64,000 nucleotides of DNA. It comes from Candidatus Pacearchaeota archaeon. Its GTDB lineage: Archaea; Nanobdellota; Nanobdellia; Pacearchaeales; GW2011-AR1. The notes beneath the pieces are model-generated. The model saw only the letters and a list, made by a program, of their open reading frames with translations, did not search any database and was not told where the DNA came from. Location: NCBI GenBank assembly GCA_018304175.1, contig JAGVWT010000003.1:1-64000 (forward strand), in the 5' to 3' direction. How positions within the stretch are numbered: position 1 is the first letter of the stretch; every line of letters begins with the position of its first letter. Shown here in pieces: positions 2,708-60,242 of the stretch. Made by a program: the position numbers and the translations under genes.

Positions 2708-2715
2708 TTTAAATA
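2708..2715 (+). promoter_or_regulatory. TATA box for the tRNA-Arg(TCT) locus
   Basis: TTTAAATA ending 24 nt before the partial tRNA copy at 2739; same spacing as TATA-to-G1 for tRNA-Cys (3483 to 3507) and tRNA-Asn (47895 to 47919). Confidence 0.65.
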
Positions 2716-2738
2716 CAATTTCTTCTTGTTTTTTGTAA

Positions 2739-2831
2739 GCCCTCGTAGCTCAGCGAGAACACGAAGTTTTCTCGCGCACTTTCCGGTTTGAATTCGTTTA
2801 AACCGATTAAGTCGCTACGTTGGTAATGAGT
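2739..2831 (+). repeat. Duplicated tRNA-Arg 5' end (16 bp) plus 77-nt hairpin-rich insert
   Basis: gccctcgtagctcagc at 2739-2754 is identical to 2832-2847; insert carries TTTAAACCGATT (2797-2808) and GCTACG (2814-2819). Confidence 0.9.
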
Positions 2832-2942
2832 GCCCTCGTAGCTCAGCCTGGATAGAGCGACTGCCTTCTAGCGATTACGCATACGCATCGCGAAACACGG
2901 AAAGAAAGCAGTAGGTCGCAGGTTCAAGTCCTGTCGAGGGCA
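2832..2942 (+). tRNA. tRNA-Arg(TCT) with 37/38 intron (about 2871-2906)
   Basis: Acceptor gccctcg/cgagggc, D-arm gctc/gagc, anticodon stem actgc/gcagt with CT-TCT-A, T-loop TTCAAGT. Confidence 0.92.
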
Positions 2943-2945
2943 TTT

Positions 2946-3045
2946 AGGATTTGAACTGCTAAATCAGTTTAAGAGAGCCAGGAAGGGGTTAGTGTAAGGG
3001 GAAACGTAGTTGCCCCTCATGGTTCAAGTCCTGTCGAGGGCATTT
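2946..3045 (-). repeat. 75-nt insert plus duplicated tRNA-Arg 3' end (25 bp)
   Basis: ggttcaagtcctgtcgagggcattt at 3021-3045 is identical to 2921-2945; 2984-3020 is the near reverse complement of 60089-60119. Confidence 0.9.
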
Positions 3046-47878: not shown

Positions 47879-47918
47879 CTAAAAACCTTTAAATACGTTT
47901 TTCTTTTTCTCAAATCAT

Positions 47919-48011
47919 GTCCCGGTAGCTCAGCAGGTAGAGCACATGACTGTTAGAATTTTGAAAATTGCAGCGATCATGGGGTCGTAGGTTCGAGTCC
48001 TACCCGGGACG
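47919..48011 (+). tRNA. tRNA-Asn(GTT) with 20-nt 37/38 intron
   Basis: gtcccgg/ccgggac, catga/tcatg stem with CT-GTT-A, clean BHB (ctgt/gcag), TTCGAGT. Confidence 0.93.
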
Positions 48012-48013
48012 TT

Positions 48014-60039: not shown

Positions 60040-60044
60040 ACAAT

Positions 60045-60052
60045 TTTATAAA
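60045..60052 (+). promoter_or_regulatory. TATA box for the tRNA-Ile locus
   Basis: TTTATAAA ending 24 nt before G1 of the partial copy (60076). Confidence 0.65.
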
Positions 60053-60071
60053 TGGATTTGGTTTTGATTTT

Positions 60072-60163
60072 AAGCGAGCCTGTAGCTCATGAGGGGCATA
60101 TCCCCTTACAATAACCCCTATCGTTAAAACCGATTGGTCGCTACAGTCTTGAACAGAAAAATG
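60072..60163 (+). repeat. Duplicated tRNA-Ile 5' end (18 bp) plus 74-nt insert
   Basis: aagcgagcctgtagctca at 60072-60089 is identical to 60164-60181; insert related to both tRNA-Arg inserts. Confidence 0.9.
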
Positions 60164-60167
60164 AAGC

Positions 60168-60242
60168 GAGCCTGTAGCTCAGCCCGGTTAGAGCACTGCT
60201 CTGATAAGGCAGGGGTCCGAGGTTCAAATCCTCGCAGGCTCA
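60168..60242 (+). tRNA. tRNA-Ile(GAT)
   Basis: gagcctg/caggctc, ctgct-CTGATAA-ggcag, TTCAAAT, A73; no intron. Confidence 0.94.

Follow-up and report, generated by a model that had tools for sequence, protein, structure and literature searches.

Two tRNA genes, tRNA-Arg(TCT) and tRNA-Ile(GAT), which carry short non-coding inserts between duplicated copies of their own ends, were analysed in a window of 64,000 nucleotides. The window covers positions 1 to 64,000 of contig JAGVWT010000003.1 from a Candidatus Pacearchaeota archaeon (GCA_018304175.1, here G000; 0.54 Mb, 17 contigs, 87.7% complete), and coordinates without a prefix refer to it. The tRNA genes were called by ARAGORN and with the Rfam model RF00005. 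A preliminary description had reported three such inserts, with target duplications of 16, 18 and 25 nt, and had assigned to each a segment antisense to its own target. On re-checking the sequence, all the direct repeats, inserts and antisense strings were present at the positions and with the lengths reported earlier. The tRNA-Arg(TCT) locus (2709-3045) is composed of the following features.

2709..2717, plus strand: native TATA box (TTTTAAATA) of tRNA-Arg(TCT), now upstream of the 5' stump
2739..2754, plus strand: 5' stump, copy of tRNA-Arg(TCT) nt 1-16, an exact 16-nt direct repeat of 2832-2847
2755..2831, plus strand: insert 1, an 'e1-type' cassette of 77 nt on the 5' side of tRNA-Arg(TCT)
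2753-2775, plus strand: hairpin 1 of insert 1
2784-2805, plus strand: hairpin 2 of insert 1
2797-2808, plus strand: TATA-like core of insert 1, TTTAAACCGATT
2814-2819, plus strand: antisense arm of insert 1, GCTACG
2820-2831, plus strand: spacer of insert 1
2832..2942, plus strand: intact tRNA-Arg(TCT) with an intron at the canonical position (Rfam RF00005, 57.1 bits)
2946..3020, minus strand: insert 2, an inverted GGGG-hairpin cassette of 75 nt on the 3' side of tRNA-Arg(TCT)
2946-2956: antisense arm of insert 2, AGGATTTGAAC
2962-2972: core of insert 2, TTAAACTGATT on the minus strand
2984-3017: GGGG/CCCC module of insert 2
3021..3045, plus strand: 3' stump, tRNA-Arg nt 52-73 plus TTT, followed by a T5 terminator; an exact 25-nt direct repeat of 2921-2945

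The RNA of insert 1 is predicted to fold into a Y-shaped structure (z = -3.5), and nt 12-16 of the 5' stump may be part of the element's own TCAGC start. Insert 2 lies between the 25-nt copies 2921-2945 and 3021-3045 and shows 90-100% identity to copies found after tRNA-Arg(CCT), Leu(TAA), Thr(GGT) and Gln(CTG). The second locus, tRNA-Ile(GAT) (60044-60242), has a single insert on its 5' side.

60044..60052, plus strand: native TATA box (TTTTATAAA) before the tRNA-Ile 5' stump
60072..60089, plus strand: 5' stump, 4 leader nt plus tRNA-Ile(GAT) nt 1-14, an exact 18-nt direct repeat of 60164-60181
60090..60163, plus strand: insert 3, a GGGG-hairpin cassette of 74 nt on the 5' side of tRNA-Ile
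60092-60119, plus strand: module of insert 3
60125-60135, plus strand: core of insert 3, TAAAACCGATT
60140-60150, plus strand: antisense arm of insert 3, GCTACAG(tCTT), with GCTACAG at 60140-60146
60151-60163, plus strand: A-rich spacer of insert 3
60168..60242, plus strand: intact tRNA-Ile(GAT) (ARAGORN and Rfam, 69.8 bits)

Over 46 nt, insert 3 shares 98% identity with the insert that precedes tRNA-Lys(TTT) on contig C1. Its predicted fold has a closing stem of 11 bp with one mismatch, at tRNA nt 4 (z = -3.3).

The inserts of G000 were listed by BLAST and a repeat scan of all 17 contigs, considering 37 tRNA genes. Inserts which duplicate the gene end were found at 14 of these genes, about a third, with nine on the 5' side and eight on the 3' side, so the earlier suggestion that the three inserts are copies of a non-autonomous family at duplicated tRNA ends, with further copies elsewhere in the genome, was borne out. 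The 5' inserts belong to Arg-TCT, Ile-GAT, three Thr isoacceptors, two Lys and two Glu genes; the 3' inserts belong to Arg-TCT, Arg-CCT, Leu-TAA, Thr-GGT, Gln-CTG, Lys-CTT and two more genes without anticodon assignment. All 17 inserts are 68-125 nt long and free of coding remnants. The duplications of G000 span 13-25 nt, the 5' copies starting at -5 to +1 and the 3' copies ending 1-3 nt past the discriminator base, and over all the loci examined, relatives included, their length varies from 13 to 31 nt. On the 5' side the insertion point lies after nt 11-16, and once after nt 20, with the element in the orientation of the tRNA. On the 3' side it lies in the T arm, at nt 52-58, and the element is inverted; thus the hairpin part always faces the stump while the core and the antisense arm face the intact gene. 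At each locus the outer copy, the stump, retains the old promoter or terminator and the inner copy completes an uninterrupted gene.

The bodies fall into several types, all arranged in this way. Insert 1 is built on the e1 double hairpin, inserts 2 and 3 on the GGGG/CCCC hairpin; there are also a Glu/Lys type and unique bodies, such as the second insert of the Thr(CGT) locus on contig C12, which lies after nt 20 and carries the arm TACCACT. Modules are common to unrelated tRNAs within G000. The 3' inserts mirror the layout of the 5' inserts without a separate A-rich tail; A-rich spacers and variable duplications are seen at the 5' inserts. The motif TTAAACYGATT, put forward earlier as a search motif, is by itself not above chance in the window (6 matches against 8.6 expected at one mismatch), whereas whole modules recur beside tRNAs throughout the genome. 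The e1 core TTTAAAC is positioned at -30 to -39 from the tRNA +1, and the native TATA boxes of G000 begin between -30 and -33. In the 5' inserts of the GGGG type the core is degenerate and lies at -38 to -44.

Variant modules, in the upstream insert at C14:81783-81905 (minus strand) and at C13:36330-36405, have a second pyrimidine run which mirrors the Watson-Crick strand, as in GAAGGAAA ... CTTCCTTT before tRNA-Lys(CTT). An intrastrand Y.R-Y triplex would need such a mirror, which was recognised by eye. ARAGORN missed tRNA-Arg(TCT), which Rfam found, and Thr(CGT); judged by the anticodon loop, its 'Glu(ttc)' is Lys(TTT) and its 'Ala(tgc)' is Thr(TGT). The missed or misnamed genes involve intron-containing tRNAs (C1:10853-10967, C5:14401-14515, C12:15154-15272, 2832-2942 and 47918-48012), of which the last comes out as Asn(gtt) when introns are searched for and as Stop(tta) otherwise.

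Comparison with related genomes distinguished occupied from empty sites. G001 and G002 belong to the same genus as G000. In G002, tRNA-Arg(TCT) has no insert on either side and the same promoter block (AACATTTTAAATA...) directly precedes the intact gene, at the place where the stump 2739-2754 sits in G000. The tRNA-Ile site is empty in G001 and also in G006 and G015, where the distance from TATA box to gene equals the distance from TATA box to stump in G000. The empty sites called for by the preliminary description are therefore on record for both genes. The orthologous Arg locus of G010 and G028 has the same promoter block, again before a stump; the arm fits the sequence of the locus itself, and the body differs in each; three genera thus display three different bodies at one junction. 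At the orthologous Arg and Ile loci the sequences of arm and spacer are similar and the bodies different. Stumps are truncated or mutated at older or tandem loci (the C12 copies, L045 and L014), and the outer copies are therefore relics and not exons. Stump-plus-insert units have been tandemly amplified in G008 and G017: in G008 (contig C20; L015, 1200-1900, minus strand) a unit made up of a 31-nt tRNA-Arg start and a 44-nt insert is present in at least 3 copies, and in G017 (contig C32; L013, ~1490-1700) three 57-nt e1 units lie in a row. The distribution is uneven: the related genome G025 (92% complete) has 28 tRNAs on a 390-kb contig and no such duplication or insert among them. Since the identical architecture was met in many independently assembled metagenome-assembled genomes (MAGs), an assembly artefact, the refutation considered earlier, is excluded.

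The e1 body is 85-97% identical at many tRNAs of G002, G007, G010, G012 and G017 and at other tRNAs of G000. An exact 30-mer of it was found on 17 contigs, which belong to at least 11 species-representative MAGs with the names Pacearchaeota, Woesearchaeota or Nanoarchaeota. All 17 copies are positioned at tRNA ends, 11 at 5' ends after GTAGCTCAGC and 6 at 3' ends, on the opposite strand, after the reverse complement of the T loop. TRM5, a housekeeping protein, is only ~65% identical among the genomes that share the e1 body, suggesting that the bodies are either spreading recently or under strong constraint. A cassette family thus colonises tRNA gene ends in Pacearchaeota-type DPANN archaea.

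The gene-proximal end of the cassette contains 6-11 nt that are complementary to the final bases of the stump, and stump and cassette can therefore close into a Y-shaped stem-loop. In nine e1-type 5' loci the three predicted helices, the stump-arm stem and two hairpins, are paired in 87% of cells, with a covariation score reached by none of 500 shuffles. Both inner hairpins carry compensatory changes, and at tRNA nt 6 six loci form a U-A pair and two a C-G pair. The arm is constant where the target is constant (GCTAC against GTAGC). In 15 loci anchored on GTAGC and representing eight target classes, the six bases beyond this pentamer match in 42 of 90 positions against 26 expected (exact permutation p = 0.001). 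The match is found at nt 6 in 13 loci, at nt 5 in 7, at nt 4 in 5 and at nt 3 in 8, a strong match extending just 1-3 nt further than the pentamer; in several arms the complementarity runs through all 11 nt, apart from a mismatch near tRNA nt 4. For 16 inserts on the 3' side, complementarity to the own target exceeded that of shuffled pairings (p <= 5e-5), and the 3' arms of two sister tRNAs differ exactly where their T stems and acceptors differ. The proposed covariation of antisense segment and target therefore extends to additional loci at both gene ends. In 6 of 7 cases the arm was most complementary, among all 37 tRNAs of G000, to its host tRNA or to an isoacceptor with the same 5' end. 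Two loci of MAG JACQLK01, with the targets GGGGACG and GGCTCCG, carry one and the same arm, GCTGCGTCGCC; an arm can thus move along with its element and is not always re-made; this favours an element-borne arm. At L041 there is no arm match beyond GCTAC and the duplication includes ~28 nt of promoter. The arm may guide the insertion, be copied or corrected from the target, or be kept by selection, and the steep decay of the match would be compatible with a short seed or with later correction.

The GGGG module is also found away from tRNA ends. In G000 it lies inside the canonical intron of tRNA-Asp, at two intergenic sites, and at P3 of the RNase P RNA, where a 44-nt module stands against a 13-nt hairpin in the model. 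The RNase P RNA itself was recognised at C17:7350-7674 (plus strand; L001, 1501-1825) with 78 bits, slightly below the Rfam cut-off. A further copy resides in the gene for a TRM5/TYW2-type tRNA methyltransferase (C16:313-1266, minus strand; L002/L074). Here a 58-aa in-frame insert (~C16:571-744) holds the GGGG/CCCC hairpin module in antisense, flanked by a decayed direct repeat of ~20 nt; it is wholly absent from G002, and G007 has its first half only. The module thus occurs in both RNA orientations. Its placement is that of selfish DNA which survives only where it is harmless: it is spliced out, lies in a hairpin that tolerates it, keeps the reading frame, or adjoins a gene end that has been regenerated.

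No enzyme gene accompanies the inserts of the window, in agreement with the preliminary description: the neighbouring open reading frames include no recombinase or transposase and encode a tRNase Z homologue, a hydrolase and proteins without assignment. The tRNase Z-like metallo-beta-lactamase (PF12706, PF13691; 1796-2692, plus strand) is the gene directly upstream of the tRNA-Arg locus. The enzymes that had been proposed to act in trans, a HUH Y1 transposase, an IS110-like recombinase or a reverse transcriptase (RT), were not found in G000 (87.7% complete), nor were Cas1 (PF01867) and TnpB. In a survey of 61 genomes, G000 and 60 relatives, RT was found in 18, Y1 in 16 and IS110 in 4; this patchy distribution does not track the inserts. 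The RTs of relatives are 340-520 aa long (in G007, G010, G012, G013, G016 and G020-G022, among others), several lie at contig ends, and they may belong to diversity-generating or group II retroelements. The recombination genes of G000 are two Xer-like tyrosine recombinases, both on contigs other than that of the window, and one truncated IS5-like transposase, none near the inserts. One of the recombinases, Xer/integron-integrase-like (C1:990-1826, minus strand; L073), lies ~360 nt downstream of tRNA-Glu(TTC), which has its insert on the 5' side. The IS5-family-like DDE transposase (C5:3-1187, minus strand; L072) is cut by the contig end and is the sole transposase found in G000.

The inserts were also compared with known RNA and element classes. 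With the Rfam 15 covariance models nothing matched the inserts at an E-value of 1 or better, and the tRNAs alone gave matches. A C/D-box small RNA or a ribozyme was likewise considered: there is no Rfam match, and by eye ATGAGGGG and the CTGA strings misfit C/D or hammerhead cores. Every copy is flanked by a duplication of 13-31 nt, which is incompatible with insertion of the IS200/IS605 type. Integration by a casposon or another Cas1-type system, with duplications of 14-15 bp or of repeat length, would call for a Cas1-family integrase, and G000 gave no match to PF01867. With regard to SINE-like target-primed retroposition, the 5' inserts show variable duplications and A-rich spacers and the mirrored 3' inserts have no separate A-rich tail; RT was not found in G000 and is present in 18 of the 61 genomes. 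As for miniature inverted-repeat transposable elements, the sole inverted pairing is that of stump and arm, which is derived from the target, the target site duplication is variable in length, and the single available end of the IS5-like transposase has no similarity to the inserts. The suggestion that the inserts are decoy att sites protecting the tRNA found no support. Split or permuted tRNA halves were ruled out, the inner gene being complete and the stumps decaying, and so was a leader-trailer processing stem, as most loci have an insert on one side alone. A duplication bounded by RNA ends, and so templated by RNA, is attractive for the 5' inserts. It was rejected as a general rule because in the 3' inserts the arrangement is mirrored on the opposite strand and the promoter sequence is duplicated at L041.

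Taken together, the inserts are best read as non-autonomous, structured, non-coding, hairpin-rich cassettes of ~45-125 nt, tolerated because the gene end is regenerated, and we give this reading a probability of roughly 60%. A cassette lands inside a tRNA gene near one end, and the stretch from the junction to the gene end is then doubled. An essential single-copy tRNA gene survives because the inner copy regenerates its end, and only insertion events of this kind would persist. The mirrored use of both gene ends points to a strand-symmetric process at the level of DNA rather than one templated by the tRNA transcript, and spread would probably proceed in trans, by an unlinked or host enzyme. 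The variable 13-31-nt duplications, seen in decayed form also at the mid-gene TRM5 site, would fit staggered or template-switch insertion. After insertion the old promoter would give a precursor whose leader is predicted to fold as a Y-shaped domain closed by stump and arm and joined to the tRNA by an A-rich linker. RNase P and tRNase Z would presumably trim this long folded leader or trailer. At e1-type loci transcription of the tRNA may instead start from the TATA-like core of the cassette, which lies 30-39 nt before the tRNA +1, near the native distance, so the cassette may also bring a promoter. The complementary arm would either read the target or be corrected against it. Some points weigh against this picture. 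No mobilising enzyme was found, and the recombinases and transposase of G000 are encoded away from the inserts. The high conservation of bodies across genera and the compensatory changes in the hairpins could equally mean a function at the level of the host, and with its core at promoter distance the cassette could be useful to the host and not just tolerated. We know of no mechanism that joins a variable 13-31-nt duplication, an inverted junction-proximal copy and a conserved body.

How the cassettes reach their sites may be explained in different ways. An element-borne arm of 6-11 nt could pair with the tRNA end, as DNA or RNA, and set the junction where the paired stretch ends, much as exon- and intron-binding sites do for group II introns or a guide tetranucleotide for IS200/IS605 elements, the arms diversifying by mutation. 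The arm is complementary right up to the junction although the junctions differ (nt 11, 15 and 20; nt 52-58), the host tRNA family is its best complement in the genome in nearly all cases considered, the arm of JACQLK01 has moved with the element rather than being copied anew, and the mismatch near tRNA nt 4 is recurrent. Guidance remains a tentative proposal, and a rather doubtful one: the strong match ends soon after the invariant GTAGC and is missing beyond GCTAC at L041, Arg-CCT and the second tRNA-Ile, isoacceptors whose 5' ends are identical, are unoccupied, a search of G000 and G002 brought up no guide-using enzyme family, and the duplication is left unexplained. The fuller version, in which a protein-less miniature element unrelated to HUH, IS110 and group II systems reads its site by 6-11-nt base pairing while insertion of the folded cassette and regeneration of the gene end fall to an enzyme that is unlinked or the host's own, would amount to a programmable, guide-directed insertion system in DPANN archaea; it is a speculation that we would not expect to hold. 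The short segment present three times, direct, inverted and direct, would also arise by template switching at highly transcribed tRNA genes with no dedicated machinery at all, the hairpins being captured or swapped later and the arm being kept by hairpin-templated correction. Unrelated bodies in the same layout (the second C12 insert and the Arg insert of G008), the similar arms and spacers beside different bodies at the orthologous Arg and Ile loci, the tandem units of G008 and G017 and the decay of the match away from the core are all in line with this. It is nevertheless unlikely, since bodies that are 90-100% identical across genera and sit only at tRNA ends (17/17) argue for targeted spread and not for passive capture, and the same arm occurs at two different targets.

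Other explanations give the inserts a use or a different origin. If the cassette were a portable promoter or processing platform of benefit to the host, the e1 core would serve the regenerated gene as TATA box, and insulation of the leader or recruitment of RNase P would fall to the stump-arm stem. The spacing of TTTAAAC, the compensatory changes in the hairpins, the module at P3 of the RNase P RNA and the stable leader folds (z = -3.3 and -3.5) agree with such a role, which we consider quite unlikely: relatives of the same genus and family live without the inserts, the core of the 3' inserts points antisense into the tRNA, that of the GGGG-type 5' inserts is degenerate and further away, and the GGGG module is met in either RNA orientation and within the reading frame of a protein gene. 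Equilibrium folding gave insulation no support: with native and shuffled arms alike, the stump of pre-tRNA-Ile pairs with the 3' strand of the acceptor, and the model misfolds the tRNA itself. Direct repeats of a tRNA end reaching the gene end, as with the 13-25-nt repeats found here, are the signature of integration by integrative elements, and stump and gene end might then be the attL and attR of integrase-mediated elements since deleted. Two tyrosine recombinases are present in G000, one of them close downstream of a tRNA-Glu with a 5' insert. Deletion scars are very improbable all the same, as no integrase or element genes lie between or beside the repeats and all 17 inserts are 68-125 nt long without coding remnants. 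One body serves at least 10 different tRNAs with locally exact repeats, which is hard to square with an att block, as that would need replacing at every move; the family uses the 5' and the 3' gene end in mirror-image polarity, and the arm has no counterpart in att sites. The adjoining of promoter and terminator to the stumps, the presence of the GGGG module in the genuine tRNA-Asp intron and the predicted pairing of the tRNA-Ile stump with the acceptor strand would suit a non-canonical D-loop or T-arm intron which includes a duplicate of the neighbouring exon, the stump being the real exon. This is scarcely credible. A scan for the bulge-helix-bulge (BHB) splicing motif at every equivalent splice position gave only palindromic 4-bp helices (AGCT or TCGA) with flanks of 0-2 bp and no hBHBh' or relaxed motif, whereas the control, the tRNA-Asp intron, has a perfect one (H4, outer 5, inner 4). 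In addition, BHB introns interrupt the sole copy, while uninterrupted tRNA genes are present here at 2832-2942 and 60168-60242, and the stumps are truncated or mutated at several loci.

Full-text literature searches found no description of such an element, in keeping with the statement of the preliminary description that none with this layout is known. Each of the closest known systems shares one or two features and fails on the defining ones. As at the borders of archaeal integrative elements of the SSV or pNOB8 type, a tRNA is interrupted near its end and regenerated, a partial copy remains beside the intact gene, and both 5' and 3' fragments occur; an example is the tRNA-Thr(GGU) fragment of Caldiarchaeum subterraneum with its 1.8-kb recombinase element (PMC3293823). 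Unlike these elements, the inserts are 45-125 nt long, non-coding and structured, with no linked integrase, and one body serves many tRNAs and has a segment complementary to the stump. Families of archaeal BHB introns have moved between positions, which is termed 'intron transposition' (Fujishima et al. 2010, as far as reviewed in PMC4090602), and a 2026 census of tRNA intron gains in Asgard archaea did not find their route of arrival (bioRxiv 10.64898/2026.10.13.758758). Like mobile introns, related short structured sequences are met here at several tRNAs and positions, and one module lies in a real intron; the difference is that the inserts have no splicing motif and lie outside an intact gene copy, with a duplication.

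Rickettsia palindromic elements (RPEs) are tolerated in essential genes, where they keep the reading frame of a protein or lie within a stable RNA. To our knowledge no transposase is known for them, and neither gene-end duplication, tRNA-end targeting nor a target-matched arm has been reported. They were reportedly described by Ogata and colleagues in 2000 as short hairpin-forming selfish repeats in a reduced genome. The short hairpin repeats studied here resemble them in lying in a reduced genome, in frame in a protein gene (TRM5) and inside a stable RNA (RNase P RNA), and differ in duplicating gene ends, targeting tRNA ends and carrying a target-matched arm. Guide-based recognition of a target without a long target duplication is a feature of IS200/IS605 elements (HUH Y1), of group II introns with their exon- and intron-binding sites (EBS/IBS) and of IS110 with its bridge RNA, and in all of them the guide adjoins the end that it reads. 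The likeness is an internal segment with complementarity to the flank directly 5' of the point of insertion; unlike those guides, the arm is situated at the far end of the cassette, the duplication is long, and their enzymes were not found in G000. Duplication-triplication/inverted-duplication (DUP-TRP/INV-DUP) and short template-switch rearrangements also form a direct-inverted-direct segment and tandem amplifications. They are sporadic, in contrast to the inserts, which are a conserved, site-specific family of many genomes with a common body.

The inserts make ARAGORN miss or misname tRNAs and would inflate the 'leader' and 'pseudo-tRNA' calls in DPANN annotations. If the arm does direct insertion, the cassettes would represent a new kind of nucleic-acid-guided DNA insertion. 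The donor family displays its stages side by side: the empty site, the fresh insert with an exact stump, the decaying stump and tandem accretion. The same module further turns up within a genuine intron, in the RNase P RNA and as an in-frame part of a protein, and the family therefore bears on how archaeal tRNA genes become interrupted, split and intron-bearing. A further lesson is how insertions into single-copy tRNA genes are tolerated in an ultra-small genome, namely by regeneration of the gene end.

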